Below, one piece after another: positions 561 through 57,300 of a DNA stretch of 64,000 nt. Position 1 is the first letter of the stretch; each line of letters opens with the position of its first letter. The notes under the pieces were generated by a model that was given only the letters and a program-made list of their open reading frames with translations, made no database searches and was not told the origin of the DNA. The translations under genes were made by a program, and so were the position numbers. The stretch is from an uncultured Gammaproteobacteria bacterium (GTDB lineage: Bacteria; Pseudomonadota; Gammaproteobacteria; JASBUN01): contig CAVXJN010000003.1 in the NCBI GenBank assembly GCA_963762165.1, positions 1,601,066 through 1,665,065 on the forward strand. Reading direction: 5' to 3'.

Positions 561-1940
561 ATGGCAATTGAATTGCAGCAGCCGAGAGGTGCCAAATTCG
601 CCTTGTTTGAACTCGGTTTCAGACCGTTCTTCAGTGCCGCAGGTTTGTTCGCCGTCGTGTCGGTGCTGGTGTGGATGGCGCTTTACGTGTTCGCAGCGCA
701 CCTACCGATGGCGACCATTGCGCCGATGTATTGGCACGCGCACGAGATGATCTATGGCTACGTCATGGCCGTCGTTGCCGGCTTTCTGTTGACGGCGGTC
801 GGCAATTGGACAGGAGTCCGCACGTTCAGCGGGTCGCCGCTTGCCATGCTGCTGCTACTGTGGCTCGTCGGCCGGATCGCCTTTTTTCTACCAATGGAGA
901 GGGCGCTGCTGCTGGCGGCTGGCGCGGATCTTTTGTTCATGATCGGTCTGATTGTCGGTGTGAGTCTGCCGGTGATCAAGGTCAGGCAGTGGAAACAACT
1001 CGGCATCGTTTCCAAGCTGCTTTTCATGCTTTTTGCCAATGGATTGTTTTATGCAGGTCTGCTCGGCTATGCGGAGCAGGGCGTTCGCTGGGGTCTCTAT
1101 TTGGGTCTGTACCTCATTCTGGCGCTGATTTTCGTAATGGCGCGGCGTGTGATTCCGTTCTTCATCGAGCGGGGTGTGGCGGAACAATTTTCGGCGCGCA
1201 ATCGGCTCTGGCTGGACGTCAGCAGTCTGGTGCTGTTCACGGCCTGGGCCGTTCTCGATATATTCACGCAACAGTCGAATCTGGTCGCATGGCTCTCGGC
1301 CGCGCTATTCGCGATCCATCTGTGGCGTCTGCGTGACTGGTATACGCCGGGGATCTGGAAGGTGCCTTTGTTGTGGTCGCTCTACGTTGCCTACGGGTCC
1401 CTGGCGATCGGTTTTCTGTTGAAGGCACTGTCGATTTGGCAGTCGGTTGCGCCTCAGCTCGCTGTGCATGCATTCGCATTCGGCGGTATCGGTTTGATGA
1501 CCATCGGTATGATGTCACGAGTAGCGTTGGGCCATACCGGCCGTGATGTGGCCCGTCCGCCCGCGCTGGTGAGTCCGGTATTTGCGCTGCTCATCGCAGG
1601 CGCGATATTCCGGGTACTGTTGCCAGCCGTGGTGGACTCGCACTACACGCTGTGGATCGCCGTTTCCCAGGTTCTGTGGATCGCCGGATTCGCGATGTTT
1701 TGTGTAGTGTATATCCCAATGTTGATCAAGCCGCGGATAGATGGTCGGCCGGGATTAGCGACCGTGATCGTTTGTTATCGGTTCGATCAATCGGTGGCAT
1801 TAGCCATTGCGAAAAAGTCAACGCGCCACGGCGCTTACGCTTGGTCTGAACGCAACGCAACGATATTGCAAATTTTAATTGGTGGATTTACGCACAGTGT
1901 TTGCGCGATCGAGCTGCGCCCGCGGCAGTTTTCGTTGTAG
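561..1940 (+). CDS. nnrS: NnrS family heme/copper-containing membrane protein
   Basis: Multi-TM ORF opening with the NnrS-type LFELGFRPFF motif. ATG 561 is preceded by GGAGAGGAAAG; an alternative start lies at 516. About 60 extra C-terminal residues follow the usual ...KPRIDGRPG end. Confidence 0.85.
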   Translation: MAIELQQPRGAKFALFELGFRPFFSAAGLFAVVSVLVWMALYVFAAHLPMATIAPMYWHAHEMIYGYVMAVVAGFLLTAVGNWTGVRTFSGSPLAMLLLLWLVGRIAFFLPMERALLLAAGADLLFMIGLIVGVSLPVIKVRQWKQLGIVSKLLFMLFANGLFYAGLLGYAEQGVRWGLYLGLYLILALIFVMARRVIPFFIERGVAEQFSARNRLWLDVSSLVLFTAWAVLDIFTQQSNLVAWLSAALFAIHLWRLRDWYTPGIWKVPLLWSLYVAYGSLAIGFLLKALSIWQSVAPQLAVHAFAFGGIGLMTIGMMSRVALGHTGRDVARPPALVSPVFALLIAGAIFRVLLPAVVDSHYTLWIAVSQVLWIAGFAMFCVVYIPMLIKPRIDGRPGLATVIVCYRFDQSVALAIAKKSTRHGAYAWSERNATILQILIGGFTHSVCAIELRPRQFSL

Positions 1941-2579
1941 CAGGAGTTGCCGAACTTGCTCGCTGCAGTGCTGAGCGGAAACCGAAGTGATTTTGCCTTC
2001 CAAGCGCTGATATAAGTGCGCTTCCGTGACAATGAAATCCATCGCGACGTCGTATTCAGTCGGATAAATGGTGTCCACCACCTGTTGTTCGTAACCAATG
2101 CCGATGGCCACTGGTTGAGGAGCGATCGATGCCAGGGTGCGATCGAAGTACCCTCCTCCATATCCGAGACGGAAGCCGCCGTGATCGAATGCATTCAGTG
2201 GAGGAAACACCACGTCCGGCTCGACCTGCGGTGTGTCTACCGGTATCGGTATGTCGAAGACACCCCGAGTCATGGCCGCGCCGGGCCACCAGGAACGAAA
2301 CACCAGTGGATGTGCCTTTTGTGCGACGATCGGCAGGGCTGTAAGGGCGCCACCGGCGCGCAATTTGTGGGCTAAGAAGCGTTGATCGAACTCGCACTTG
2401 TGTGGCCAGCAGAATCCAACAACACAATCCGACAATACGTCTAACAGTACGCTTTCCAATTGTCGATTGATGCGATTGTCCATTTCCCGTTTTCGATCCG
2501 TCGGAATCGCGGTTCGTAGCTGGATGGCTCTGGATCGCACTTCTTTGCGCCATGCCGGCGTGGCGGGTTTGATATTCAT
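1875..2579 (-). CDS. 5-formyltetrahydrofolate cyclo-ligase family protein
   Basis: MNIKPATPAWRKEVR... with the family motifs FDHGGFRLGYGGGYFDR and CVVGFCWP. The upstream 51 codons of the listed ORF are Arg/Thr-rich junk, so the internal ATG at 2579 is preferred. Confidence 0.8.
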   Translation of the reverse strand: MNIKPATPAWRKEVRSRAIQLRTAIPTDRKREMDNRINRQLESVLLDVLSDCVVGFCWPHKCEFDQRFLAHKLRAGGALTALPIVAQKAHPLVFRSWWPGAAMTRGVFDIPIPVDTPQVEPDVVFPPLNAFDHGGFRLGYGGGYFDRTLASIAPQPVAIGIGYEQQVVDTIYPTEYDVAMDFIVTEAHLYQRLEGKITSVSAQHCSEQVRQLLLQRKLPRAQLDRANTVRKSTN

Positions 2580-2961
2580 CTTTAATGTTTCGTTCCGAAT
2601 AAAGTAAGCCGAAGCCTCCGTGGAGAAGATGTTAGTGGTTTCTGTGCGGTTGCGGGTATGTTTTGGGTTTCTGCGGGTAAAGCGTTGCTTATGGATGAAC
2701 CAGCTGCGCGTGTAAGTCACCAGCCGCTTCACACCTTCCGGTACAAGGAGGCAAGTCCCGCGATTGTGTCCACGAGTCGATGCAACTTTCCGTCGCCCAC
2801 CGGGTCGAGGATCGCCCGCTCTTGAAATAATTGTTGTAAGGATTCGGGCCGGCTAACGACCAATCACCTGTAGACGCAGAAGTTTCACGAAAACCAAGCG
2901 GGGACCGCGACGCTCTCCAGGTCGACGGGAACCTAAGTCAATGACGGATAAGGAGATACCG

Positions 2962-3255
2962 ATGACGAGATACAACGCGACTGCACTTGTGCTGGCCATG
3001 AGTGCGGCCATGACACTTGCCGCTTTGCCGGCTTCTGCTGCCGAACAGGCAAAAGAGAAGTGCTACGGCGTAGCGCTAAAAGGCCAAAACGACTGCAAGG
3101 CGGGACCCGGGACCACCTGCGCAGGCACTTCGAAAGTCGACTATCAAGGTAATGCATGGAAGTTGGTTCCGGCCGGCACGTGTACGGAGATTCCGTCACC
3201 GACGTCGCCGACGGGCCACGGCCAAATGGAGCCGTTCAAGGCCAAGCGCTCCTGA
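2962..3255 (+). CDS. bufA: DUF2282-type bufferin precursor peptide (BufA-like), Sec signal peptide plus 4-Cys core
   Basis: AAGGAGATACCG RBS precedes ATG 2962. Signal peptide ...[11 protein letters not shown]. Core is [46 protein letters not shown], the conserved DUF2282 pattern. Confidence 0.85.
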
Positions 3256-3256
3256 G

Positions 3257-4198
3257 ATGCGAACCGTGCGTCCAGGCGCAACTTCAGCTTCGGACATGCA
3301 CTCGATGGAAAAGACCGGTGGTGCGGCGCGCGGGCAGACCGGCGGTTTGCCCGCGCGTGCCGGCGTCGGATTGAAAGCCGAACATTTTCGCGACGTCATC
3401 ACGACGCGACCGAATCTTGGCTTTTTCGAGGTCCATGCCGAAAACTACATGGTCGCCGGCGGTCCATATCGCCATTTTCTAAGCCGCATTCGCGAGCATT
3501 ATGCACTGTCCATGCATGGTGTCGGGCTGTCGATCGGGGGTGAGAAACGCCCCGACCGAGTCCATCTGGACCGACTCGTGGCTCTATTGAATCGCTATGA
3601 ACCGCAAGTATTTTCCGAGCACCTCGCCTGGACCGGCCACGGCTCCGCATTCTTAAACGACTTGCTGCCGATCGCTTACAACCACATTACATTGCAACGG
3701 GTGTGCGAGCACGTCGATGAAGTGCAGTGTCAGTTGAAGCGTCGAATATTGCTGGAGAATCCTGCGACCTATGTCGAGTTCGCGGAGTCGGATATGGCGG
3801 AATCCGACTTTATGAATCAGGTCGTACGGAATACCGGCTGCGGTTTGTTACTCGACGTCAGCAACGTATATGTATCCAGCGTAAATCACCATCGCGACCC
3901 GTATACGAGCCTGCGGGATCTACCGCTCGACGCCGTGGAAGAGGTACATCTGGCTGGGTTTTCCTGCAGCAATGATGCAAGCGGCGATTCGTTATTGATC
4001 GACAGTCATGATGATGCGATCGCGCCGGAGGTGTGGGACCTGTACGCGTTCGCGATAGACTCCGCAGGACCCGTGGCGACGCTGATCGAACGCGACGGAA
4101 ATATCCCGCCGCTGCGGGAGTTGCTCACGGAAGCTGAACGCGCCGACATCGTGCTCAGGGCTCACCTGCGCAGATCTGGGGGTCGGGCAGTTGATTAG
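3257..4198 (+). CDS. bufB: MNIO family (DUF692, MbnB-like) multinuclear non-heme iron oxidase, BufB-like
   Basis: GVGLKAEHFRDV...LGFFEVHAENYM...MHGVGLSIGG...FSEHLAW are DUF692 hallmarks. Start is uncertain (ATG 3257, 3296 or 3305); 3257 lies 1 nt after the bufA stop. Confidence 0.9.
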   Translation: MRTVRPGATSASDMHSMEKTGGAARGQTGGLPARAGVGLKAEHFRDVITTRPNLGFFEVHAENYMVAGGPYRHFLSRIREHYALSMHGVGLSIGGEKRPDRVHLDRLVALLNRYEPQVFSEHLAWTGHGSAFLNDLLPIAYNHITLQRVCEHVDEVQCQLKRRILLENPATYVEFAESDMAESDFMNQVVRNTGCGLLLDVSNVYVSSVNHHRDPYTSLRDLPLDAVEEVHLAGFSCSNDASGDSLLIDSHDDAIAPEVWDLYAFAIDSAGPVATLIERDGNIPPLRELLTEAERADIVLRAHLRRSGGRAVD

Positions 4199-4967
4199 TC
4201 AAGCCGACTTTGCCAGGGCCTTGCTTGATCCGGAGCGGCCGGCGCCGGGAGGGCTTGTTACGTGGAATGACTCGGACCCTGAAATGCGCTTTGCGGTGCA
4301 CCGCAATAATGTGGTGGGGTCCCTCATTGACGCGCTGGCGGACACATTTCCGGTCACACAACAGCTGGTCGGAGAAGCGTTCTTTCGCGCGATGACCCGG
4401 CTTTTTGTTCTTGCAGAGCCGCCCAGGGCTCCGATGCTTGCAATGTACGGGAAATCGTTCCCGGAGTTTGTCGAATCGTTTCCGCCGGCTGACTCTGTGC
4501 CCTACCTGGCGGATGTGGCCCGCCTGGAACTGATGCGGCTGGAAGCGTATCACGCCGCAGACGTTGCGCCACTCGCAGCTGGGGCCGTGGCGCAAGCTCA
4601 AAGGGGCGCTGCGCAGACCGAAGACTGGGTGCTCGAGTTCCCACCTTCTGCGCGGCTGCTGCAATCGCCTTTCGCGGTGGTATCCATCTGGGCGGCCCAT
4701 CAAAGTGATGATGCCCGTGAGGTTGTCGACGCCTATGTCGAAGAAACGGCATTGGTTATACGAGTGCACTTCGACGTGGAGGTCGTTCAACTGAATCCGG
4801 GGGACGCTCGCTTCGTCAGTGCGCTTATGCGTGGTGTGCCCATCGGGGCGGCGGCGGATGCAGCGCGAACTCGTTGCACGGGATTCGATCCTGCCGAAAG
4901 TTTGGCCCTGCTGTTTCGTCACCATGCCATTACCTCTCTCATTCCAACCGGGAACACGAGACCATGA
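4191..4967 (+). CDS. bufC: DUF2063 domain protein (BufC-like MNIO partner)
   Basis: N-terminus FARALLDPERPAPGGL...RFAVHRNNVVGSLIDAL..FP and later YLADVARLELMRLEAYHA match DUF2063. Overlaps bufB by 8 nt. Confidence 0.8.
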   Translation: MISQADFARALLDPERPAPGGLVTWNDSDPEMRFAVHRNNVVGSLIDALADTFPVTQQLVGEAFFRAMTRLFVLAEPPRAPMLAMYGKSFPEFVESFPPADSVPYLADVARLELMRLEAYHAADVAPLAAGAVAQAQRGAAQTEDWVLEFPPSARLLQSPFAVVSIWAAHQSDDAREVVDAYVEETALVIRVHFDVEVVQLNPGDARFVSALMRGVPIGAAADAARTRCTGFDPAESLALLFRHHAITSLIPTGNTRP

Positions 4968-5494
4968 ATACAGCTAATGACACCGCCACACTCACAGTTG
5001 GGCGCAAACGGGGCCAGGGTGTGATCGGACGTCTGAATTTGATGTTCGCATCTATACCAGATTCATTGATTGCTGCGCTCGGACGATTCTCCATAGCTGC
5101 TATATTCTGGAAGTCGGGCCAGACCAAAATCGAGGGCCTTGCCGTTGATGTGCTGAATGGTCAGTTCCAGTTCGGTTGGCCGCATTTGTCCAGTTCTGCG
5201 GTGGAGCTGTTCAAGTACGAGTACGGCCTGCCGTTGGTTTCGCCGGAACTTGCCGCAACGTTGGCGGCGTTTGCAGAACATGTGTTCCCGGTCTTCCTTC
5301 TGCTTGGTCTGGCGACACGATTTTCCGCGTTTGCCTTGTTGACCATGACCGCCGTGATCCAAATCTTCGTCTATCCGGATGCCTATCCTACCCATGGGGT
5401 CTGGGCGACGGTATTGCTGTTTCTTGTGGCAAAAGGCGGCGGCTGGCTGTCGCTGGATCATTGGCTTGCGTCGCGATACCGGTCTCAAGCGTAA
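4964..5494 (+). CDS. DoxX family membrane protein
   Basis: ATGA overlap with the bufC stop. Four hydrophobic helices and DoxX-like IAAIFWKSGQTK and VFPVFLLLGLATRFSA segments. Confidence 0.85.
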   Translation: MNTANDTATLTVGRKRGQGVIGRLNLMFASIPDSLIAALGRFSIAAIFWKSGQTKIEGLAVDVLNGQFQFGWPHLSSSAVELFKYEYGLPLVSPELAATLAAFAEHVFPVFLLLGLATRFSAFALLTMTAVIQIFVYPDAYPTHGVWATVLLFLVAKGGGWLSLDHWLASRYRSQA

Positions 5495-5695
5495 TGAATC
5501 CGCAGAAGGCGCAAGGGCGCACGTAACTGCTGCGCGGAATACAGTGCGTTCAGGACTTTGAAAGCTTTTCAGCCGCGCGGCCACAACACCGCAAGCGGGG
5601 CGCATGAGCAGACGTAGCTTTAGTGGGACGCACCTAGGAACGAGGTAGGTTCGGATCTTGTGCTTGGGAAATCAATTTCGCGGTATCAGGACAGT

Positions 5696-6334
5696 TCAGC
5701 ATGTGGACTCGGCTTCGACGATCCACTGTTGCTCCAGGCACCGGCGCAAGCATATGCGTGAGCGATGCATCATGACGTTCAGGTTTCCAACCGTGATTTC
5801 AACGGCCGAGCAGATCTCTTGGTTATCCAGTCCGACGAATTCACGCATCATGAACACGCGCGCATGATTGGGGGGTAAATTTTCCAGGCACATCTCAAAG
5901 ACCCGCCAAAATTGCTGTTCACGTATTGCTTCCTCTGGATCGCCCCAACCCCGCGGACGCTCGCCAGCAAGCCAGCAGCCCCGGCTGTCGAACAATGGCG
6001 GGGCATTGTCGAGGTCTTCCTCGTCACGCGCGGCGCCTCTGTCACGGGACAGTCGTGAATACTGGCGCAATTGGTCGGCAATCTTGTTTTTAAGGATTGC
6101 AAATATCCATGTTTTCAGCGCTGCGCGGCCGCGAAACGAACCTGCATTTCGGAGGGCGCCGACGAACGTCTCTTGTACGACATCTTCGGCGAGACACGCA
6201 TCAGACAGTTGCAGGGTCGCGAATGAAAGCATCTTGCGGCGCAGTTCCTTGAGCGCGTCGTCGTCGACGAGCAAGGTCTCGTCCGCGCTGGGATTTCGAG
6301 GCGTACTCGAGTCGTACCGGTTTTGAATGTGCAT
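5696..6334 (-). CDS. ECF (sigma-70 family group 4) RNA polymerase sigma factor
   Basis: Region 2 (AEDVVQETFVGALRNAGSFRGRAALKTWIFAILKNKIAD) and region 4 (LPPNHARVFMMREFVGLDNQEICSAVEITVGNLNVMMHRSR). ATG 6334 is preceded by GGGAGG. The upstream 113 codons of the listed ORF look non-coding. Confidence 0.85.
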   Translation of the reverse strand: MHIQNRYDSSTPRNPSADETLLVDDDALKELRRKMLSFATLQLSDACLAEDVVQETFVGALRNAGSFRGRAALKTWIFAILKNKIADQLRQYSRLSRDRGAARDEEDLDNAPPLFDSRGCWLAGERPRGWGDPEEAIREQQFWRVFEMCLENLPPNHARVFMMREFVGLDNQEICSAVEITVGNLNVMMHRSRICLRRCLEQQWIVEAESTC

Positions 6335-6805
6335 CTGGCCTCCCGCCTCGCCGACCGTGCAGATTGCCCCGTATACGACGTATGGACCGCGGTATCGGCC
6401 GTAAGTTCCGGGCGCCCGGCTTCGGCCGCACGGTAGAGACTCGACTTCGGCCCAGCGGGGACACGAGCGTTCTGTACGGAATGCTGCCGTGGTATTGGCG
6501 GCGGCTCGGCTGACACCGCGTTCGAACCGGTCATAGAGGAGGGGCGGCGTGCGCGGAGCGTTTTCCGGAGAAGTGGTGCGCGAACATGGCGCGCGGCGGC
6601 CTGGGCCGCAGACAGCGCACATGTTCCTCAATACCGTAGCACCGCGTGGTAGCAAGCGAACAGACGAAGTCATAGCTTGTATCTACGCTGTTCTGCAGTC
6701 TATGATCGTGCCTTCATGGAAGCCGCGCCCTTCCTCGGAACCGCGGACCACTCAAGGTCGTGTCGTCTCCGATCCCGTATTGCGCCGCCGCGAATTGCAA
6801 CATCG

Positions 6806-7762
6806 ATGCGCATTATTAAAGACATTCCAACCAACTTGATATTCGGTTTTCTCGGTGTAGGGAAGACCACCGCGGTACTCGATTGGATTCGGCAGAAGCC
6901 CGCCGGTGAGTCGTGGTCTGTATTGGTAAATGAATTCGGCGAAGTGGGCATCGACGGTGCGATATACCAAAGCCAGGGAATTGCGGTGAAAGAAATTCCC
7001 GGCGGTTGCATGTGTTGCGCCCAAGGTGTGCCTCTGCAAGTAGCCGTGAATCGCCTTCTGCGGGAAACACTTCCGGATCGGCTGTTGATCGAAACCAGCG
7101 GTATCGGCCATCCGTCCGGCGTACTCGATACGCTGCGAGGCGACGGCTTCCGCGGCGTGCTCGATCTGAAAGCGATCATTGCCTTGGTCGATCCGGAACA
7201 GTTGCTCAATGCTGCATGCGTAACCAATGATCTGTTCCTGCAGCAACTCGCGCTCGCCGACGTTCTGGTGGCGAATAAGATCGATTTGGCTTCCGCGCCG
7301 GCTTTGTCGGCCTTTCAAGCGCTGTCGGACCGATTCGCCACACCGAAGGCTCTGATTGCATCGACCACTCGCGGCAAGATGCAATTGCAATGGCTCGAGT
7401 ACGATCACAGCGATCGTAAGGACGACTTCACGGCTGCCGCATCAGCGGTACAATCCGGGCGCTGGCAGTCTATGAATTGGCGTTTTTCCGCCGCGACGAC
7501 TTTCGATATGGACGCGTTGCGACGCTGGATTGAGACGCTGTCGGTTGTCCGCCTAAAAGGTATCGTCAACACAAAGAGCGGAAGCTACGTACTGAACTAT
7601 GCGGCGGGCTCACTCGCGGTACAGCCGGCCGGGCAGGATCTGGAGACCCGACTGCAGATAATCGATCAGCAAGCCGCCGACCAACGGGCGACGGATCTGT
7701 TTGCAAGCGAAATCGAAAAGAACCTCAATGCATGCATCGATTCGGATGTTAAGAGCAAGTAG
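6806..7762 (+). CDS. COG0523 / CobW-family G3E P-loop GTPase (metallochaperone-type)
   Basis: Walker A FGFLGVGKTT, metal motif GGCMCC, IETSGIGHP and VANKIDL, plus a CobW_C-like C-terminal domain. Confidence 0.85.
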   Translation: MRIIKDIPTNLIFGFLGVGKTTAVLDWIRQKPAGESWSVLVNEFGEVGIDGAIYQSQGIAVKEIPGGCMCCAQGVPLQVAVNRLLRETLPDRLLIETSGIGHPSGVLDTLRGDGFRGVLDLKAIIALVDPEQLLNAACVTNDLFLQQLALADVLVANKIDLASAPALSAFQALSDRFATPKALIASTTRGKMQLQWLEYDHSDRKDDFTAAASAVQSGRWQSMNWRFSAATTFDMDALRRWIETLSVVRLKGIVNTKSGSYVLNYAAGSLAVQPAGQDLETRLQIIDQQAADQRATDLFASEIEKNLNACIDSDVKSK

Positions 7763-8164
7763 TTTCGCTCTATCGATTTCCCGGTACGGACAACCATTGA
7801 TTGCGCGGGCGGATCCGGGTGGTCGTTATTCAAGCGGCCGTTGTTTGCCTTCGGGCTTCTGTCCTATATCCCTCGCGCGGTTGGTGATGCGCGCGTTTCG
7901 AGTACTGCACGCCGCCCAAGCCGTAATCCACGCGACTCCCAAAGGCGACAAGCGCAATGACTGGATGTGTGCGGCACGAAGTTCAGTGTCGGAGCCGGGG
8001 GATATCGCGCGAAAATCTATGCAGGTGGTGCTATACGCGCGGCACTATGGGGCATGTCGCCCCCTTGCAGTTTGTGAGACCGCCGCGGCAGCGGCTGGCA
8101 ACTGGCATGCGTGGTGCATATATGAGCGTCGACCATAGAGTCGGAAACTGAAAGGAGACAGACT

Positions 8165-8611
8165 ATGAAACGGAATCTTTTGATCGCTGCAATCGCCGCA
8201 GCCGCCATGTCGACCAGCGCTTTCGCCGCCGAACTGGGTGCCGATACCAGCGCGCAAGTCGGGGCCTCTGCGAACGCAACCACCGGAAGCGAAGGCTTCA
8301 GTCAGTTGGACGCCAATCATGACGGCCAACTGAGCCGTAGTGAGGCGCAAGCCAATGGTCGATTGTCGGGGCAGTGGAGCCAACTCGACGCTGACGGCAA
8401 TGGCAGGGTGGATCAGTCCGAGTTCTCTGCATTCGAAAGCAAGGTGCCAAACGCGGCGGCACCCGCCGGCCAGCCTAACGGCATCGGCCGCCCTGGCGCG
8501 AGTGGCACCATGCCCGAACCGGGCGCAGCGCCTGGCGCCGGCATGGATTCGACCCCGCCTGGCATCCGCACGAATCCGGGAGCCAGTGGAGCGGCACCCG
8601 GCCACATGTAA
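8165..8611 (+). CDS. Secreted EF-hand calcium-binding protein with Pro/Gly/Ala-rich tail
   Basis: AAAGGAGA RBS and signal peptide ...STSAFA/AE. Two EF-hand loops, DANHDGQLSRSE and DADGNGRVDQSE. Confidence 0.8.
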   Translation: MKRNLLIAAIAAAAMSTSAFAAELGADTSAQVGASANATTGSEGFSQLDANHDGQLSRSEAQANGRLSGQWSQLDADGNGRVDQSEFSAFESKVPNAAAPAGQPNGIGRPGASGTMPEPGAAPGAGMDSTPPGIRTNPGASGAAPGHM

Positions 8612-8625
8612 GAGCAGTAAGTGGA

Positions 8626-8654
8626 CGCTCCGCGGAACTACCGTTCCCGGAGCG
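8626..8654 (+). terminator. Stable hairpin 15 nt after the EF-hand gene stop (possible terminator, no U-tract)
   Basis: CGCTCCG-C-GGAAC tacc GTTCC-CGGAGCG forms a 12-bp stem with one bulged C and a 4-nt loop. No T-run follows. Confidence 0.4.
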
Positions 8655-9303
8655 GTCTGCCTGATCCGCTGACAAGGATGTCGGCGGCTCAGGTTGGACG
8701 CTGGCAATATTTTTCAAGCTCCCCGGAATGATCTCCAGTCCGCGGGAACCTCTTATCGCCGGATCGAAATCCCGCGGATCGCGGCAACAGCCCTCCACAT
8801 CGAATAACCCTTCGTCGGGATCCCACCGAGCGCTAGCGTTCGCGCGCTAGTCGGCTAGACGCAGCCAATCATGATGAACGGCCCGCGCTGGTTGCGCGCG
8901 CGTTCGAGTTACCAGCAGCCTTGCTGGGGCGTTTCGGCACCACGACCTTAGCTGCCGCGACACGTTTCGCTACACGTGTCGCCATATGTTGTCGTTGCCC
9001 CCTCGGGACACCGGTAGTAACCGTGAGATCAGTCACTTAGTTGTAACAACGCAGCCAGGCGTTGTTGATGGACGACGATCTGAGCCTGCGCCAATTCCTG
9101 TCTTGTACCTAAGTCACTCAAAACTCGCCGAAAAACTACGATGGCACGGTGATTGCTCAATGCGAAGGGACGCGCCGACGTGGCGTGTATGCGAATGACC
9201 AACAAATCTTACGGACCAATGAGTCCGGAAATGAGTCGGGGCTCGTGCAAACGCGCAAAGAACTGTTGCCGAAACAATCACTGTTCATTTTGGATGCGGA
9301 TCG

Positions 9304-10839
9304 TTGTTTCGGTCGGCAGGTGTAATGGGTGCAAAAAAGGAACGCAGTCCTCTGATGGCAAGTACGGGACAACAACGGATGTTCCCTCCGGGAGTTAGAT
9401 CCGCAGGTTATCTGCCGGCCGGTGTCGCGCCGATGGCGGCTGGACGCCTCGATACTGGCAGTCTGCACGACGTGCCTTGGGTTGCGCTGGTTCAACGGCT
9501 GCTGAGTCCGACGGTGATCGCCTCGACGTTACTGGTATGTGCGTTTTCGTTTGAGCGCTACCTTTCCATCCTGAATCTATCGCTTGCAGGGTTTACGTTC
9601 GTCCTCAGCCTCTATGTCGTCACTGAGTTTCCGTTGACCAAGGTTCAGTCCGGTTTGCTGATCTCCTACCCGAAGCGCCGTTTGCTATTCCAGTGGCTCA
9701 AGCTGATGGGGATCGTACTGTTCATCGGATTCGCCACCAAGACATCGACGCTGTACTCCAGAAAGGTATTGCTGACCTGGTTTGTGGTCACTCCGTTCGC
9801 ACTGCTTCTGATGCAGGAACTCGTCGGCGGTTTGCTGCGGAAAGCAGTGAGTGCGGCACGTTCGGAACGTGCCAAGGTAATCGTCGGCGCAAACCGGATC
9901 GCCTACGAGTTGGCCCGTCGTATCGAATCAGATCCGTTACGCGGCCCGGTGGTGGGATTTTTCGATGACCGGGAGCATTGCCGTATCGCGGATGTATTTT
10001 CCGACAAGCTTCTTGGGCGGCTTGAGGATTTGCCTGCGTTCGTGCGCTCGAGGAACGTGGACTCCATTTATATCGCGCTACCGACCCTGGCCCAAACCCG
10101 GGTGATGCAGTTATTGGCGGACTTGGAGGATACCACGGCCTCGGTATACTTCGTGCCCGATCTCAACGCCTTCCAGCCAATCCAGAATTACATCGACGAT
10201 ATTGACGGCATACCGGCGATCGCAATCCGGGAAACGCCTTTCCGAGGCATCAATTCGCTGATCAAGCGGGTCAGCGACGTGCTGTTTTCAGGCGTCGTTA
10301 TCGCCATGATCTGGCCGCTGCTGTTGCTTCTTGCTGCGTCCGTCAAACTGAGTTCGCCGGGTCCCGTACTGTTTCGACAGCGTCGATACGGGATCGACGG
10401 CCACGAAATCGTCGTATACAAGTTTCGCACCATGACCGTATGCGAGGACGGAGATCGGATCGAGCAAGCGCGTCGTCACGATACTCGCGTTACCCCCATT
10501 GGCCGCTTCATGCGCGCCACTTCGTTGGACGAACTTCCGCAGTTCTTCAATGTACTTCAAGGTGGCATGAGCGTTGTCGGCCCCAGGCCGCACGCAATCG
10601 CACACAACGAATTATACCGCCGGCTCATCCCCGGATACATGCTGCGTCACAAGGTCAAACCCGGGATCACAGGTTGGGCACAGGTCAACGGACTGCGGGG
10701 CGAAACCGATGATGTGGACAAGATGAAGGCACGGGTCCACTACGACCTCGATTACCTGCGCAATTGGTCATTGTGGATGGACGCGTGGATTGTGATTAGA
10801 ACCGCCGTAGGCGGGTTTTTCGGCCGAAGTGCCTACTGA
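9304..10839 (+). CDS. Undecaprenyl-phosphate hexose-1-phosphate transferase (WcaJ/EpsB-type initiating enzyme)
   Basis: N-terminal TM helices. C-terminal bacterial sugar-transferase domain PGPVLFRQRRYGIDGHEIVVYKFRTM...DELPQFFNVLQGGMSVVGPRP...GITGWAQVNG. Start is uncertain (TTG 9304; ATG 9325, 9355 or 9433). Confidence 0.9.
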   Translation: MFRSAGVMGAKKERSPLMASTGQQRMFPPGVRSAGYLPAGVAPMAAGRLDTGSLHDVPWVALVQRLLSPTVIASTLLVCAFSFERYLSILNLSLAGFTFVLSLYVVTEFPLTKVQSGLLISYPKRRLLFQWLKLMGIVLFIGFATKTSTLYSRKVLLTWFVVTPFALLLMQELVGGLLRKAVSAARSERAKVIVGANRIAYELARRIESDPLRGPVVGFFDDREHCRIADVFSDKLLGRLEDLPAFVRSRNVDSIYIALPTLAQTRVMQLLADLEDTTASVYFVPDLNAFQPIQNYIDDIDGIPAIAIRETPFRGINSLIKRVSDVLFSGVVIAMIWPLLLLLAASVKLSSPGPVLFRQRRYGIDGHEIVVYKFRTMTVCEDGDRIEQARRHDTRVTPIGRFMRATSLDELPQFFNVLQGGMSVVGPRPHAIAHNELYRRLIPGYMLRHKVKPGITGWAQVNGLRGETDDVDKMKARVHYDLDYLRNWSLWMDAWIVIRTAVGGFFGRSAY

Positions 10840-36091: not shown

Positions 36092-38212
36092 ATGAACGAC
36101 GAATCACGCATACACGGCTTCAACCGCCGGCGTTTCCTGCAAGGCACGGCCATGATGGGACTGCTGGCGGGCTTCGAAAGCCTGACCCCGGCGTTCGCCT
36201 GGGACAAGAGCGGTAATCTGTCGGCGGCAAAAACCGCCCAGGGCGACACCGACATTTTCAACCTGAGCATTAAGCGCAAGCCGTTGCAGATCGGCAGCCG
36301 CATGGGTAATCCCATCACGCTCAATGGCTCCATCCCCGGCCCGTTGATTCGTCTGCGAGAAGGACGGGACGTGATTTTAAACGTTACCAACCATCTCGAT
36401 GAGGATACGTCCATCCATTGGCATGGGGTGTTGCTTCCCAACGGCATGGATGGCGTGCCGCTGGTGACGTTTCCGGGCATCAAACCCGGAGAGACCTTTA
36501 CCTATCGCTACCCGGTGCGGCAGCACGGCACTTATTGGTACCACAGCCACTCCGGACTGCAGGAACAGCTCGGCCACTACGGGCCGTTGGTCATCGACCC
36601 GGCCGAGCCTGAACCATTCCACTTCGATCGCGACTACGTTGTCATGCTTTCGGACTGGACATTTCATGACCCGCACACTGTCTATGCCAAGCTGAAGAAG
36701 GCCGAGGGTTACTACAACTACCAGAAGCGCACGGTGGCGGATTTCTTCGACGACGTGCAAAAAAAGGGCTGGCGAAACGCTTGGGCAGAGCGCGGCATGT
36801 GGGGCCGCATGCGCATGAGTTCGCGGGACATTCTCGATGTCACCGGCGCCGAGTACACCTATCTCATCAACGGCCTGCCGGCCGAGTCGAATTGGACCGG
36901 GTTGTTCAAGCCGGGTGAAAAAGTGCGCCTGCGCTTCATCAACGGTTCGGCGATGACGTTCTTCGACGTGCGCATCCCGGGATTGAAAATGACCGTGGTC
37001 GCCGCCGACGGCCAATACGTCGAGCCGGTGCCGGTGGACGAGTTCCGCATCGGCGTGGCCGAGACCTACGACGTGATCGTCGAGCCAAGCGAAGACCGCG
37101 CCTATACGGTATACGCCGAATCGATGGACCGTTCCGGTTTCGTGCGCGGCACGTTGGCGACCCGGGATGGTATGAGCGGCCCGATTCCTGAAATGCGCAA
37201 GCAAGTGGTCGAGCGCGGCATGGACTCGATGGGCATGGACATGCACGACATGCCGGGAATGGATGGCATGAAAGGCATGCACGGTATGTCCCAAAACGGT
37301 TCCGGCATGGACATGTCCAATTCCAATTCCAATTCCATTGACACGAACATGCAGTCGGGCGGTGCCATGGCCGGTATGGCTGCTGGTCATGAAGGTCAGA
37401 TGTCCGGAATGAACATGGGCGCGGCAAACGCCGGTAATACCGGTGGGGAAATGGCCGGCATGAAGATGGGTGATACCGGTAATGGTCACGGAACGCCCCA
37501 GATGGCGGGCGCCGCCATGGGGGGCACAGCCGGTGCTCAGATGTCGGGCATGAATCATTCCGGTCACGACATGAGCGGCACGTCGGCGATGTCGGCAATG
37601 AATCACAACAGCGCCGGCATGGCGGGGATGGAGCACGGCGGGTCCGCCATGAACATGCAGCCCGAAGCGGCCAAGCTTCCCACCGAAGGCCGCAAGGTCA
37701 GCCATGGTCCCGACAATCACGGGCCGGGCGCGGCCATGGTCGCGGAGTCTCCCAAGAGCAGGTTGGACGATCCGGGCGTCGGCCTGCAGGACGTCGGCCA
37801 CAAAGTGCTGGTGTACAACGATCTGCGCAGTCGCGTGATCTGGCCGGACAAGCGGCCGCCCGAACGGGAACTGGAATTACATCTGACCGGCAACATGGAA
37901 CGCTACATGTGGTCGTTCGATGGCAAAAAATACAGCGAGGTGCACGGCATCCAGTTCAAGTACAACGAGCGACTGCGCTTGATTCTGGTCAACGACACCA
38001 TGATGGATCATCCGATTCATCTCCATGGCATGTGGATGGAGCTGGAGAACCGGCACGGAGACTATCGGCCGCGCAAGCACACGATCAGCGTCAAGCCCGG
38101 CGAAATGGTCTCGGCGCTCATCACCGCCGACGCCAAAGGTCATTGGGCGTTCCATTGCCATCTTCTGTATCACATGGAAGCCGGCATGTTCCGCGTGGTC
38201 ACTGTAGCCTGA
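36092..38212 (+). CDS. copA: Copper-resistance multicopper oxidase CopA/PcoA (Tat-exported) with expanded Met-rich insert
   Basis: Twin-arginine signal FNRRRFLQG. Cu sites HWHGV, YWYHSH, HPIHLHG and HCHLLYHMEAGM. The Met/Gly/His-rich region spans aa ~361-522. Confidence 0.95.
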   Translation: MNDESRIHGFNRRRFLQGTAMMGLLAGFESLTPAFAWDKSGNLSAAKTAQGDTDIFNLSIKRKPLQIGSRMGNPITLNGSIPGPLIRLREGRDVILNVTNHLDEDTSIHWHGVLLPNGMDGVPLVTFPGIKPGETFTYRYPVRQHGTYWYHSHSGLQEQLGHYGPLVIDPAEPEPFHFDRDYVVMLSDWTFHDPHTVYAKLKKAEGYYNYQKRTVADFFDDVQKKGWRNAWAERGMWGRMRMSSRDILDVTGAEYTYLINGLPAESNWTGLFKPGEKVRLRFINGSAMTFFDVRIPGLKMTVVAADGQYVEPVPVDEFRIGVAETYDVIVEPSEDRAYTVYAESMDRSGFVRGTLATRDGMSGPIPEMRKQVVERGMDSMGMDMHDMPGMDGMKGMHGMSQNGSGMDMSNSNSNSIDTNMQSGGAMAGMAAGHEGQMSGMNMGAANAGNTGGEMAGMKMGDTGNGHGTPQMAGAAMGGTAGAQMSGMNHSGHDMSGTSAMSAMNHNSAGMAGMEHGGSAMNMQPEAAKLPTEGRKVSHGPDNHGPGAAMVAESPKSRLDDPGVGLQDVGHKVLVYNDLRSRVIWPDKRPPERELELHLTGNMERYMWSFDGKKYSEVHGIQFKYNERLRLILVNDTMMDHPIHLHGMWMELENRHGDYRPRKHTISVKPGEMVSALITADAKGHWAFHCHLLYHMEAGMFRVVTVA

Positions 38213-40445: not shown

Positions 40446-40874
40446 ATGATTGTCAATGAGCTCGCCAAGGCCGCAGGCGTCGAGCCGCACGTGGTCCGTT
40501 ACTACACCCGCATCGGTCTGCTACGACCCGCCCGTCACCCCGACAACGGTTACAAAATGTTCCGCCCGAGCGACATCCGACGCCTGGAATGGATCCGGCG
40601 CGCCCAAGAGTTGGGTTTCGGTTTGACCGAGGTCGCCGCTTTTCTTGAGGCGCAGGAGGCCGGTGAAACCGCTATGGTGCCGATGTGCGAAAGTCTTCGT
40701 CAAAACATCGAACGCAATCGCAGCCGTTTGTCGGAACTCCAAAAGCTCCAGGCGCGGATGGAGGCGGCAATGAACGCGTGGGATCGTTTTCAAACGGGTC
40801 CGTTGCGCGACCTCGCGGCCGCCGACGTGACTGCCTCAGAAGCGAACGGTCTCAACCTTTCTCGCATGACTTGA
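40446..40874 (+). CDS. MerR family transcriptional regulator
   Basis: GGAGGAGA RBS. HTH MIVNELAKAAGVEPHVVRYYTRIGLLRPARHPDNGYKMFRPSDIRRLEWIRRAQELGF, followed by a coiled-coil dimerisation helix. It has a single Cys (VPMCES) and no C-terminal CX7C. Confidence 0.9.
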   Translation: MIVNELAKAAGVEPHVVRYYTRIGLLRPARHPDNGYKMFRPSDIRRLEWIRRAQELGFGLTEVAAFLEAQEAGETAMVPMCESLRQNIERNRSRLSELQKLQARMEAAMNAWDRFQTGPLRDLAAADVTASEANGLNLSRMT

Positions 40875-43977: not shown

Positions 43978-44214
43978 ATGAAAATCGAGATTATTACGAC
44001 CCATTCTTGCAGTCATCGCGTCGGTCTGGAGCGGGAGTTGCAGGACCTCGGCTACGCCTATGAGCTGTTCTACGTGGAAGAGCACCCGGACATCGTTGCG
44101 CTGTACGGCATCCGGCACTCGCCCAATCTGGTAGTCAACGGCAAGGTGATTTGCCGAGGTCCGGAAGCGCTGCCGGAAGGTGAACTGCGCCGATTGATCG
44201 AAGCGCTGCAGTGA
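43978..44214 (+). CDS. Small thioredoxin-fold (Thioredoxin_3/glutaredoxin-like) protein lacking CxxC
   Basis: MKIEIITTHSCSHRVGLE...YGIRHSPNLVVNGKVICRG follows the small Trx-like layout. The usual C..C is C-S-H-R here. Confidence 0.6.
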   Translation: MKIEIITTHSCSHRVGLERELQDLGYAYELFYVEEHPDIVALYGIRHSPNLVVNGKVICRGPEALPEGELRRLIEALQ

Positions 44215-44234
44215 GGAAAGCGGAAATCGAGCAT

Positions 44235-46316
44235 ATGGGGCATCAGCATGAGAAGCACGGTGCCGGCGCACCCGGCGAGGATTTTCCTGCGCGCAAGGCA
44301 CCAGAGCATCAGGACGGCCATCAAGGTCACGATCATGGCACCATGATCGCTGATTTCCGCAAGCGGTTTTGGGTGTCGATCATCCTCACCATTCCGATCC
44401 TGGCACTTTCGCCGATGCTCCAGGCGTTCGTAGGCGCGGAGCAAGCGCTTGCGTTTCCCGGTGACGCCTATTGGCTGCTCGCGTTTTCCAGCGCCGTTTA
44501 TTTCTATGGTGGCTGGCCGTTTATTTCCGGTCTGTTGTCGGAGCTGCGTCAGCGCCAGCCCGGCATGATGACCTTGATCGCGCTGGCGATCAGCGTCGCA
44601 TATTTCTACTCCGCTGCGGTGGTGCTGGGACTGACCGGCAAGGTGTTCTTTTGGGAGTTGGCGACCCTGATTGACGTGATGCTCCTGGGCCACTGGATCG
44701 AGATGAAGTCGGTCATGGGCGCTTCCGGTGCGCTGGAGGCACTGGTCAAGCTGATGCCTACGGTCGCCCACCGCTTGCAGGCCGGGGCCGAGGTCGAAGA
44801 CGTGCCGATCGCCGAGCTCCGCCCCGGCGACCGGGTGCTGGTGAAACCAGGAGAGAAAGTTCCAACCGATGGAATGATCGTCGATGGTCGCTCCAGTCTC
44901 GACGAATCCATGCTGACCGGCGAGTCGAAGCCGGTGGAACGTGGCGTCGACGAAGAAGTGATCGGCGGCTCGGTCAATGGCGAGGGGGCGATCACCATCG
45001 AAATCCGCAAGACCGACGATGAGACTTATCTTTCCCAGGTCATCGACATGGTGCGCCAGGCGCAGTCATCGCGTTCGCGGACCCAGGATCTCGCCAACCG
45101 CGCCGCGCAATGGTTGACTTACATCGCCCTGAGTGCAGGCGGTTTGACGCTGATCGTGTGGCTGTCGCTCGGAGCGGAGTTCGAGTTTTCTCTCGAGCGC
45201 ATGGTGACCGTCATGGTGATCACCTGTCCGCACGCACTCGGATTGGCGGTTCCGCTGGTGGTGGCGGTCAGTACCAGCCTTGCTGCGGGCAGGGGTCTGC
45301 TGATCCGTGACCGCGCAGCATTCGAGCGCGCGCGCAATCTCCAGGCAATTGTGTTCGACAAGACCGGCACGCTTACCGAAGGGCGATTCGGTGTCAGCGA
45401 TATCGTTGTGCTCGGGGCGCGTAGTGAATCCGACGTTTTGAGTCTGGCGGCCGGCTTGGAGCAGCAGTCGTCTCACCCCATTGCTGCGGGCATCGTGCGC
45501 GCCGCAGAAGAGCGTCGACTGCCGAACGCCAAGGTTGCGGACTTCGAGAACCTGCCCGGCAAAGGCGCACAAGCGCGCGTCGAGGGGGCGCTGATTCAGG
45601 TCGTGAGTCCTGGATATGTGCGCAGCAGCGGCGTTGAGCTGGACCACGAACGAGTCGACGCGTTGATGGGCCAGGGCAAGACGGTCGTATTCGTGCTCGA
45701 GGAGGGCCGTGTCATTGGCGCCATCGCGCTGGCGGATATCGTGCGGCGGGAATCCCGCGCCGCCATCGCTCGGCTCAAGGAGATGGGTATCCAATGCATG
45801 ATGTTGACCGGCGACGCCGAAGCCGTGGCCAGGACGGTGGCGGCAGAGCTCGGCTTGGACGACTACTTCGCCGAAGTATTGCCGGACCAGAAGGCGGCCA
45901 AGATTCGTGAAGTGAAGCAACGCGGTCTGGCGGTCGCAATGGTGGGCGATGGTGTCAACGACGCGCCCGCACTGGTGGAATCCGATCTCGGCATCGCGAT
46001 CGGCGCCGGGACCGATGTCGCCATCGAGTCCGCCGACATCGTCCTGGTGCGTTCCGATCCGCGCAACGTTGCCGACATTATGGCGCTGTCGCGCGCGACC
46101 TACAGCAAGATGATCCAGAACCTGCTGTGGGCGACCGGCTACAACGCCTTCGCCATCCCGTTGGCAGCCGGTGTGGCCTATAGCGTAGGGGTGGTGCTCA
46201 CGCCAGCGTTCGGTGCTGCGCTGATGTCGCTGAGCACTGTGATCGTGGCGATCAATGCCAAATTGCTGAGTCGCTTTCAGCCATCCACCGCCGCCGCGGC
46301 GAGCGACCGAAGCTGA
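44235..46316 (+). CDS. P1B-type copper-translocating ATPase, CopB-like (His-rich N-terminus, CPH motif)
   Basis: MGHQHEKHG...HQDGHQGHDHG tail, TGES, TM6 CPH (VITCPHALGLAVP), DKTGTLT, GDGVNDAP, and a MSLST-type TM8. Confidence 0.95.
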   Translation: MGHQHEKHGAGAPGEDFPARKAPEHQDGHQGHDHGTMIADFRKRFWVSIILTIPILALSPMLQAFVGAEQALAFPGDAYWLLAFSSAVYFYGGWPFISGLLSELRQRQPGMMTLIALAISVAYFYSAAVVLGLTGKVFFWELATLIDVMLLGHWIEMKSVMGASGALEALVKLMPTVAHRLQAGAEVEDVPIAELRPGDRVLVKPGEKVPTDGMIVDGRSSLDESMLTGESKPVERGVDEEVIGGSVNGEGAITIEIRKTDDETYLSQVIDMVRQAQSSRSRTQDLANRAAQWLTYIALSAGGLTLIVWLSLGAEFEFSLERMVTVMVITCPHALGLAVPLVVAVSTSLAAGRGLLIRDRAAFERARNLQAIVFDKTGTLTEGRFGVSDIVVLGARSESDVLSLAAGLEQQSSHPIAAGIVRAAEERRLPNAKVADFENLPGKGAQARVEGALIQVVSPGYVRSSGVELDHERVDALMGQGKTVVFVLEEGRVIGAIALADIVRRESRAAIARLKEMGIQCMMLTGDAEAVARTVAAELGLDDYFAEVLPDQKAAKIREVKQRGLAVAMVGDGVNDAPALVESDLGIAIGAGTDVAIESADIVLVRSDPRNVADIMALSRATYSKMIQNLLWATGYNAFAIPLAAGVAYSVGVVLTPAFGAALMSLSTVIVAINAKLLSRFQPSTAAAASDRS

Positions 46317-56550: not shown

Positions 56551-57300
56551 CTAAGGCGCCGGCTGCGGCAATACCCCGTCCACCAGAAACGATTCCATCG
56601 GAAATACCAACGTCGATTCCTCCGCGCTGTAGAACATCACCCGTTCGCCATCGGTGTCGCACAGCCAGGCTTGTTGAAACGTGGGTTTGGATTTCTTCAG
56701 TGCCGCAGGGCTGAACAGTGCGACGTTGAGTCCTCCCTGGCGGTCGCGCGCGGAGGGATATTGGAATGCTTCGATGCCGGCGTCGCGCATGCGTTGTCCC
56801 AGCAGTTGGCTGTCGCTGTAGCCAGCGGGGTTTGCGATTTGCTTCGTGAAGGCGGCGAAGGGCGGGTTTTGCAGGTGCAATCCATGATCGGTTGCGTATG
56901 CGGCGCCGAACACGGTGTGGGCGGTGACGAGTTTGCCGCTGGGGGGCGGTAGTGTCATGCCGTTCCAGAACACGAGCCGGTAGTAGGCGGTTTCCGCCAA
57001 TGCGGTGCGTAGTTCGACCGATGCGTAGAACAGACTCGGTTGGTTGGGGCCGCCGAAGCGCGAACCGTGGCGCAGGGGCGGATACCGAAACGGGGTGGCT
57101 AGCAGGTAGTGCAGGCGTCGCGTTTCCGCAGGAGCAGGTGGTTTAGCCTCGTCCAGCAATGATTCCAGCAGTGCCTGCTCGGCCAGATCGTCCACCAGGG
57201 AGTTGGTGGCGATCTGTTCCTGGCTTTCGACCACACGAATCGCGGTCCCCGCCAGGGATTCCGGCTGCGCCTGTCCGGCACAGGCTTTCCAGATGTCCAC
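56551..57300 (-). CDS. RES domain toxin (NAD+-targeting type II toxin)
   Basis: RES signature PLRHGSRFGGPNQPSLFYASVELRTALAETAYY...YPSARD... Its GTG start shares one nt with the antitoxin stop. Confidence 0.9.
   Translation of the reverse strand: MDIWKACAGQAQPESLAGTAIRVVESQEQIATNSLVDDLAEQALLESLLDEAKPPAPAETRRLHYLLATPFRYPPLRHGSRFGGPNQPSLFYASVELRTALAETAYYRLVFWNGMTLPPPSGKLVTAHTVFGAAYATDHGLHLQNPPFAAFTKQIANPAGYSDSQLLGQRMRDAGIEAFQYPSARDRQGGLNVALFSPAALKKSKPTFQQAWLCDTDGERVMFYSAEESTLVFPMESFLVDGVLPQPAP

Follow-up and report, generated by a model that had tools for sequence, protein, structure and literature searches.

The window analysed here, a stretch of 64,000 nucleotides (nt) of contig CAVXJN010000003.1 from an uncultured Gammaproteobacteria bacterium, carries four tightly coupled plus-strand genes, bufA-bufB-bufC-bufD, which fill positions 2962-5494. 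They encode a DUF2282 precursor protein, a multinuclear non-haem iron oxidative (MNIO) enzyme, the DUF2063 partner of this enzyme and a DoxX-family membrane protein. We are highly confident in reading the locus as a biosynthetic operon for a Buf1-type bufferin, with the mechanism and regulation proposed below. A candidate promoter of the extracytoplasmic function (ECF) type precedes the operon, and the gene of an ECF sigma factor with the remnant of an anti-sigma gene follows it:

2835-2864, plus strand: candidate ECF-type promoter, TGTAAGGATT (-35)-N12-CGACCAAT (-10), 127 nt upstream of bufA
2962-3255, plus strand: bufA, DUF2282 (Buf1) bufferin precursor, 97 amino acids (PF10048, 90.3 bits for a cutoff of 22.4)
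3257-4198, plus strand: bufB, MNIO (formerly DUF692) enzyme of the bufferin maturase subfamily
4191-4967, plus strand: bufC, DUF2063 partner of the MNIO enzyme, PME1/HvfC-like (PF09836, 87.4 bits, residues 4-94)
4964-5494, plus strand: bufD, DoxX-family membrane protein (PF07681, 55.2 bits)
5634-5702, minus strand: 22-codon stub of a zinc-binding (zf-HC2) anti-sigma gene, MLNCPDTAKLISQAQDPNLPRS and a stop, overlapping the stop codon of the sigma gene in ATGCTGA
5696-6334, minus strand: ECF sigma factor gene, 212 amino acids, TIGR02943 family (216 bits for a cutoff of 162), convergent with doxX

The buf genes and their products

A first-pass annotation of this DNA, made from the letters alone, had described four coupled reading frames, and all the junctions that it gave match the letters of the window. 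The sequence AAGGAG, a ribosome-binding site, is found 6 nt 5' of the bufA ATG. A single nucleotide separates the bufA TGA (3253-3255) from the ATG at 3257, the most likely start of bufB, for which the ATGs at 3296 and 3305 are also possible. bufC starts with a TTG at 4191, giving an overlap of 8 nt with the end of bufB at 4198. Finally, the doxX start and the bufC stop share the ATGA at 4964-4967.

The search with profile hidden Markov models (HMMs) that had been suggested for the four proteins returned the DUF2282, MNIO, DUF2063 and DoxX models. BufB matches PF05114 (MbnB_TglH_ChrH, the MNIO family) at 336.6 bits. Within this family, it scores 363 bits for a cutoff of 310 with the NCBIfam equivalog NF050167 (MNIO_BufB, "MNIO family bufferin maturase"), and stays below the cutoffs of the sister models HvfB (223.5 vs. 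360), MbnB (TIGR04159; 52.3 vs. 325), ApyH and ChrH. It also matches PDB 3BWW (E = 2.4e-36); searches of PDB sequences with BufA and with BufC gave no match. The NCBIfam HvfC model covers residues 4-214 of BufC with E = 8.7e-13, below the model cutoff; this extent is indirect evidence for a putative RRE-like domain at the C-terminus of BufC. At least 8000 DUF2282 homologues of the precursor, mostly of 97-104 amino acids, were found at E <= 0.001, several of which NCBI names "BufA1 family periplasmic bufferin-type metallophore". No EGKCG repeats occur in the precursor of the locus.

Gene neighbourhoods were compared by counting genes within 8 kb of bufB in 80 genome loci, which BufB had retrieved from Beta-, Gamma-, and Alphaproteobacteria at 50-64% identity. 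The closest BufB proteins in the genome collection are only 62-64% identical (Sulfuritalea, Rhodocyclaceae, Burkholderiales), and the source is probably an uncultivated betaproteobacterium. In this set bufB is accompanied, in a fixed order, by bufA (75/80 loci), bufC (79/80), and doxX (74/80). The HMM scores, the homologues named BufA1 and the conserved gene order thus support the bufferin identity of the locus, and the earlier proposal of an uncharacterised bufferin holds. The locus adds an unstudied member to a known family, of a kind already named by NCBI; bufferin-type clusters number thousands to tens of thousands in surveys (PMC12452194; PMC13097082). To a specialist it is a textbook Buf1 cluster of the sort that annotation pipelines already name, and it matters little beyond its correct annotation, the chemistry, export and copper buffering having been worked out in Caulobacter.

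BufA is predicted to carry a 26-residue Sec-type signal peptide followed by a 71-residue core. The signal peptide, judged by the hydropathy profile and the -3/-1 rule only, has a positive n-region (Arg3), hydrophobic residues 4-24 and an ASA|A cleavage site after residue 26, in agreement with the Sec signal peptide initially assigned to the 97-residue frame. It is the sole hydrophobic stretch of the protein. The core contains the four cysteines already noted in DUF2282 contexts, Cys34 (EKCYGV), Cys45 (NDCKAG), Cys53 (TTCAGT), and Cys74 (GTCTEI), that is core positions 8, 19, 27, and 48. All four are invariant in an alignment of 52 BufA sequences, from which residue conservation was read.

The Pro/Ser/Thr/His tail after the last cysteine had been taken for a local feature, a view that the comparison overturns. 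The tail motif xxxSPTSPTGxGQLxxFKEKxx is present in 120 of the 120 best BufA homologues. Among 81 loci fetched via BufB or BufA, the long form accounts for 60 and a short related form, TPNGxGSLxPK, for the remaining 21, most of them from Alphaproteobacteria. Residues S79, S82, G85, G87, and Q88 of the tail are invariant in the alignment. The position of the tail histidine is variable among relatives (H/F/Y/K/M/N/Q); therefore it is not a conserved metal ligand. In an AlphaFold model of BufA the overall pLDDT (predicted local distance difference test) is only 61, with a mean of 80-85 for residues 71-90, in the tail, and values below 50 for the Cys45/Cys53 loop. The model fits a conserved C-terminal tail that would be part of the small family fold and no appendage.

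The proposed maturation follows the Buf1 system of Caulobacter, where BufB and BufC are necessary and sufficient for modification in vivo and in vitro, and where the mass shift of -10 Da of the product corresponds to two thiooxazoles and one disulfide bond (PMC11626156). Further support for thiooxazole assignments has been published (PMC13097082; bioRxiv 10.64898/2025.12.15.693703). By analogy, BufA of the window would be synthesized as a 97-residue precursor, and the iron enzyme BufB, with its DUF2063 partner BufC, would convert Cys45 and Cys53 into 5-thiooxazole rings in the cytoplasm. The modified protein would then be exported by Sec and cleaved by signal peptidase after ASA26, and Cys34 and Cys74 would form a disulfide. 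This refines the first-pass reading: only Cys45 and Cys53 are expected as 5-thiooxazoles, the two outer cysteines being expected as a disulfide (cf. PMC11626156). The monoisotopic mass of the core, 7380.55 Da unmodified, is predicted to become 7370.47 Da once modified. The mature folded peptide of 71 residues would chelate excess periplasmic Cu(I)/Cu(II). DoxX would be an accessory membrane protein unnecessary for modification: in Caulobacter it is dispensable for this step, and the Sec signal peptide exports the product, a bufferin that binds Cu(II) with a dissociation constant of ~6e-15 M and protects against copper stress (PMC11626156).

The DUF2282 protein might instead be an unmodified small periplasmic or membrane protein, its neighbours acting elsewhere, as would be suggested by the Pfam description of PF10048 and by JGI names, which still say "membrane protein" ("uncharacterized membrane protein"). 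This view is very hard to sustain. The only hydrophobic stretch of BufA is its N-terminal signal peptide, in Caulobacter the homologous precursor undergoes modification by its BufB and BufC both in vivo and in vitro (PMC11626156), and translational coupling and a gene order kept at 74-79 of the 80 loci tie the precursor to the other genes.

The candidate bufA promoter and the sigma factor module

Transcription from the candidate promoter is predicted to start near position 2870, which would give bufA a 5' untranslated region of ~92 nt. The strict pattern TGTAA[CG]-N14-18-CGAC, searched on both strands of the whole 64 kb, occurs only once, at this site. The same motif is located 100-150 nt 5' of bufA in 22/82 loci, and a Neisseria-like pattern is found upstream of bufA in 21/81 loci, where 0.05 would be expected from shuffled sequences. 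GTAAGGATT-N12-CGACCAAT (2836-2864) agrees with the neisserial sigmaE consensus GTMAGBWTT-N12-13-CGTCTAAH (PMC2893595) at 9/9 positions of the first element and 6/8 of the second.

A scan of positions 2600-6900 for sigma-70 promoters and terminators found no sigma-70-like site 5' of bufA, the counts being at or below the shuffle expectation. The Rfam scan of the whole window gave no RNA family at the gathering threshold, and hence no known riboswitch is present in the ~92-nt leader. A GGAAC-type site at ~2929, directly 5' of the ribosome-binding site, was rejected: it has no -10 element at the right spacing and would start transcription within the ribosome-binding site.

Other bufA promoters were observed in the comparison. 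The class GTMAG..-N12-CG[AT]C.A was seen at 21/81 loci (Betaproteobacteria, Marinobacterium, Thermomonas), and the SigF-type GTAACC-N16-CGAA, which is not in the window, at 10/81, mostly in Alphaproteobacteria. Pseudomonas loci have a variant TGTAAC-N~19-TCTCTAG. Thus, at least three classes of promoter appear to serve Buf1 operons, of SigF type, of Neisseria sigmaE type and of the Pseudomonas variant, which could guide work on how bufferin production is induced.

The sigma factor convergent to the operon is full length, with Sigma70_r2 (52.6 bits) and Sigma70 r4_2 (37.2 bits) domains. It is 53-58% identical to its nearest orthologues and 38% to that of locus L097. Orthologues convergent to buf operons are found in Rhodoferax (L006), in Aromatoleum (L008), and on metagenome contigs L084, L085, and L087. 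In L092 (6022-8828), L097 (5971-8855), and L098, orthologues with a zinc anti-sigma are located directly 5' of genes for an EGKCG-precursor, an MNIO enzyme and a DUF2063 protein. The sigma/anti-sigma pair adjoins both Buf1 and EGKCG clusters; one regulatory module therefore accompanies two precursor families. No match to NrsF (DUF1109), a membrane anti-sigma, was obtained among the reading frames scanned around the operon.

The bufA promoter is thus most likely the ECF-type element at 2835-2864, and this sequence comparison makes the adjacent TIGR02943 sigma factor its likely regulator and probable reader. The link between the buf operon and an ECF sigma factor that the first-pass annotation had drawn is strengthened by the fit of the promoter to the neisserial consensus and by the orthologous sigma genes beside MNIO clusters. 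The sigma factor would be of the type of Neisseria sigmaE/MseR and Haemophilus RpoE2/HrsE.

On the metagenome contig L084/L085, the motif occurs at 7207, 7872, 11097 (minus strand) and 11119. These sites stand in front of bufA, of a gene resembling carboxymuconolactone decarboxylases, of the sigma gene and of a divergent unit of four genes (unknown, TANGO2, unknown, DoxX), an arrangement suggestive of a small regulon. The motif-bearing region of this contig is adjoined by a mer operon.

Intact genes for anti-sigma proteins of 64-83 amino acids with an H-x3-C-x2-C motif are found 3' of the sigma gene in L006, L008, L084, and L087-L099. In the window, the stub matches the first 19 residues of the intact proteins (tblastn E = 2e-6 to 2e-4). 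Beyond it, a frame-shifted remnant extends to ~5500, in which the histidine and the first cysteine of the zinc motif are replaced by arginine; the H-x3-C-x2-C motif is lost. A simple indel error as the cause of this truncation was rejected. Correction by one frameshift opens more than 180 codons antisense to doxX, and the zinc-motif histidine and one cysteine are still replaced after it. In addition, a second assembly (L167, run ERR11594398) carries the identical sequence, being 100% identical over 3323-8834, although it may share reads with the assembly of the window.

Several observations weigh against the operon and its control being as proposed. BufC and DoxX score under the cutoffs of the NCBIfam HvfC and HvfX models, both of which were built for a sister family. 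The -10 element of the promoter departs from the neisserial consensus at 2/8 positions. In L006 and L084/L087, TGTAACAAAC-N12-ACGAC is found 5' of the sigma orthologue itself, which speaks for autoregulation in these relatives, whereas the 470 base pairs (bp) 5' of the sigma gene of the window contain no GTAAG/GTAAC...CGAC motif. Furthermore, most loci bearing the promoter motif lack a sigma gene within 8 kb, and the assignment of the sigma factor to the promoter is therefore circumstantial. Finally, with its anti-sigma broken and its sigma gene devoid of a motif of its own, the regulatory module may be decaying rather than active.

In N. meningitidis, deletion of the anti-sigma gene mseR de-represses the operon (PMC2893595), and constitutive buf expression is for this reason the simplest prediction for the window, decay of the whole module being the alternative. 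With its anti-sigma truncated, the operon may run without its usual stress gate. We put forward only tentatively the broader proposal that an ECF sigma factor with a small zinc anti-sigma is the usual Buf1 regulator in Betaproteobacteria and some Gammaproteobacteria, and that the anti-sigma stub leads here to constitutive bufferin production. If true, decay of the anti-sigma gene beside an intact sigma gene, promoter and operon would mimic the mseR deletion in nature. This genome shows the loss of an anti-sigma gene occurring naturally.

Breakdown of the module could also have left the buf operon intact in sequence but silent, or in the course of being lost. An anti-sigma gene reduced to 22 codons and a frame-shifted remnant, with two zinc ligands gone, would be expected in this situation, as would the sigma gene without the autoregulatory motif seen in L006 and L084. 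However, the four buf genes, the sigma gene (full length, 53-58% identity) and the bufA promoter motif are all intact, loss of the anti-sigma de-represses the regulon in N. meningitidis rather than silencing it (PMC2893595), and another sigma factor of the genome could read the bufA promoter. A silent operon is thus improbable.

Genomic surroundings and the copper cluster

The operon and its sigma gene are surrounded by the following features of the window:

33-470: NnrS gene, C-terminal part, cut by the window edge, upstream of bufA
516-1940: second NnrS gene, upstream of bufA
1875-2732, minus strand: gene for 5-formyltetrahydrofolate cyclo-ligase (MTHFS), between the NnrS genes and bufA
~6806-7762, plus strand: gene for a CobW/COG0523-type metallochaperone GTPase, divergent from the sigma gene, with an intergenic region of ~470 bp
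8165-8611, plus strand: gene for a secreted 148-residue protein with calcium-binding EF-hand motifs, 2.7 kb from the buf operon
36092-38212: copA, multicopper oxidase gene, beginning 30.6 kb past the end of doxX
40446-40874: gene for a MerR regulator, in the copper cluster
44211-46316: gene for a P-type ATPase, in the copper cluster

The copper cluster (~36.1-46.3 kb) comprises copA, copB, the MerR regulator gene and genes for a porin, two c-type cytochromes, a beta-propeller protein and the P-type ATPase. The position of copA agrees with the large cop island previously reported at about 30 kb. The operon had also been placed between NnrS genes and an ECF sigma gene. The sigma flank is confirmed; both NnrS genes, on the other hand, are upstream, and the MTHFS gene intervenes.

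From these neighbours, an integrated copper/nitric oxide (NO) stress regulon had been suggested, and this suggestion is not borne out. The NnrS, MTHFS, CobW, and EF-hand genes are found within 8 kb of bufB in 0/80 loci, on which ground a conserved NO/copper supercluster was rejected. The promoter motif is single in the 64 kb, and the cop cluster has its own MerR regulator. The strict pattern gives no site close to the NnrS, cop or sigma genes, and none of the matches to a relaxed pattern in the window is directly upstream of these genes.

A bufferin may be made at this locus and serve in defence against oxidants (hypochlorite, peroxide) or thiophilic metals (Au, Cd, Cr) rather than against copper, a role that we regard as unlikely. 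A promoter and sigma factor like those of Neisseria (sigmaE/MseR) and Haemophilus (RpoE2/HrsE) would be consistent with it: in Haemophilus, HOCl, H2O2, and paraquat induce rpoE2, whose product also drives msrAB (PMC7907618). Chromium and cadmium induce the Caulobacter buf operons via SigF (PMC3511200), the gig operons of Cupriavidus and Legionella respond to gold and copper (PMC5413113; PMC13492112), and the dedicated cop cluster of the window is separately regulated. However, the direct evidence for the family is copper protection with femtomolar copper binding (PMC11626156), and thiooxazole peptides of three other systems also indicate copper detoxification (PMC13097082).

Some other features of the region were observed. 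The EF-hand protein gives a weak, sub-threshold match to the lanmodulin model (33.7 bits vs. a cutoff of 135). A ~23-kb run of long plus-strand reading frames (9304-32453) sets the copper cluster apart from the buf operon. The 9304-10839 frame resembles a sugar-phosphate transferase by eye, which would suggest that the run is a polysaccharide biosynthesis cluster. At 56551-57300, the minus strand encodes a protein with a RES domain (97.5 bits), the toxin of toxin-antitoxin pairs of the RES-Xre type. Besides, a second contig of run ERR11594398 (L081) is 99.4% identical to window positions 1379-3347, with 11 mismatches and 1 gap; this suggests a co-occurring strain variant having the same NnrS-MTHFS-bufA gene order.

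Comparison with known systems

The closest counterpart is the founding Buf1 bufferin operon of Caulobacter vibrioides, buf1 (bufA1B1C1D1, CCNA_03363-03366), made up of the same four genes in the same order. Common features are a DUF2282 precursor with a Sec signal peptide, four cysteines and an 8-residue spacing of the central cysteines, an MNIO enzyme with its DUF2063 partner, DoxX in last position and an ECF-type promoter with a GTAA(C/G) -35 element. The core has 71 residues in the window vs. 68 in Caulobacter, and the last cysteine is followed by 23 residues (the long form) vs. ~16. Regulation is different. Control of Caulobacter buf1 lies with SigF and with NrsF, a membrane anti-sigma of six helices, via GTAACC-N16-CGAA (PMC3511200), whereas the window has a TIGR02943 sigma factor, a small zinc anti-sigma, truncated, and the promoter GTAAGGATT-N12-CGACCAAT.

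Homologous DUF2282/DUF692/DUF2063/DoxX operons with an ECF sigma neighbour occur in metal-stress contexts in Cupriavidus metallidurans (gigPABT) and Legionella pneumophila (GIG). The Cupriavidus operon has as neighbours the genes of RpoQ (ECF16) and of RsqA, which is membrane-bound, upstream on the opposite strand; control of gig by RpoQ could not be demonstrated (PMC13492112). The ECF16 (RpoQ) consensus given for Cupriavidus, -35 AATTCG and -10 GGTTAC (PMC13492112, Table 4), reads as the reverse complement of the experimental Caulobacter SigF motif GTAACC-N16-CGAA (PMC3511200).

On the side of regulation, the window is close to Neisseria NMB2140-2145 (gonophorin) and Haemophilus influenzae hvfABC (oxazolin). 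These systems have an ECF sigma factor and a co-transcribed cytoplasmic zinc anti-sigma of ~65-80 amino acids, and they share with the window the promoter architecture GTMAGBWTT-N12-13-CGTCTAAH and the presence of MNIO, DUF2063, and DoxX genes in the regulated cluster. In contrast, their precursor is an EGKCG-repeat peptide and that of the window a DUF2282 protein, and the MNIO enzyme of the window scores as BufB, not as HvfB. The sigma gene is convergent to the operon in the window and inside the operon in Neisseria and Haemophilus, and the anti-sigma of the window is truncated. The Neisseria sigmaE operon contains a DoxX gene, three hypothetical genes that have since been recognised as an MNIO cluster, sigmaE and the gene of the small zinc anti-sigma MseR (PMC2893595); Haemophilus RpoE2, with the 67-residue anti-sigma HrsE, belongs to this type as well (PMC7907618).

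Finally, in the methanobactin system MbnABC, an MNIO enzyme and its partner likewise act on cysteines of a ribosomal peptide to yield a copper chelator. Methanobactin is a small leader-dependent peptide with oxazolone/thioamide groups, exported for copper uptake. In contrast, bufferins are small proteins that are exported by Sec and buffer copper in the periplasm. The MNIO enzyme of the window scores far below the cutoff of the MbnB model (52 vs. 325).

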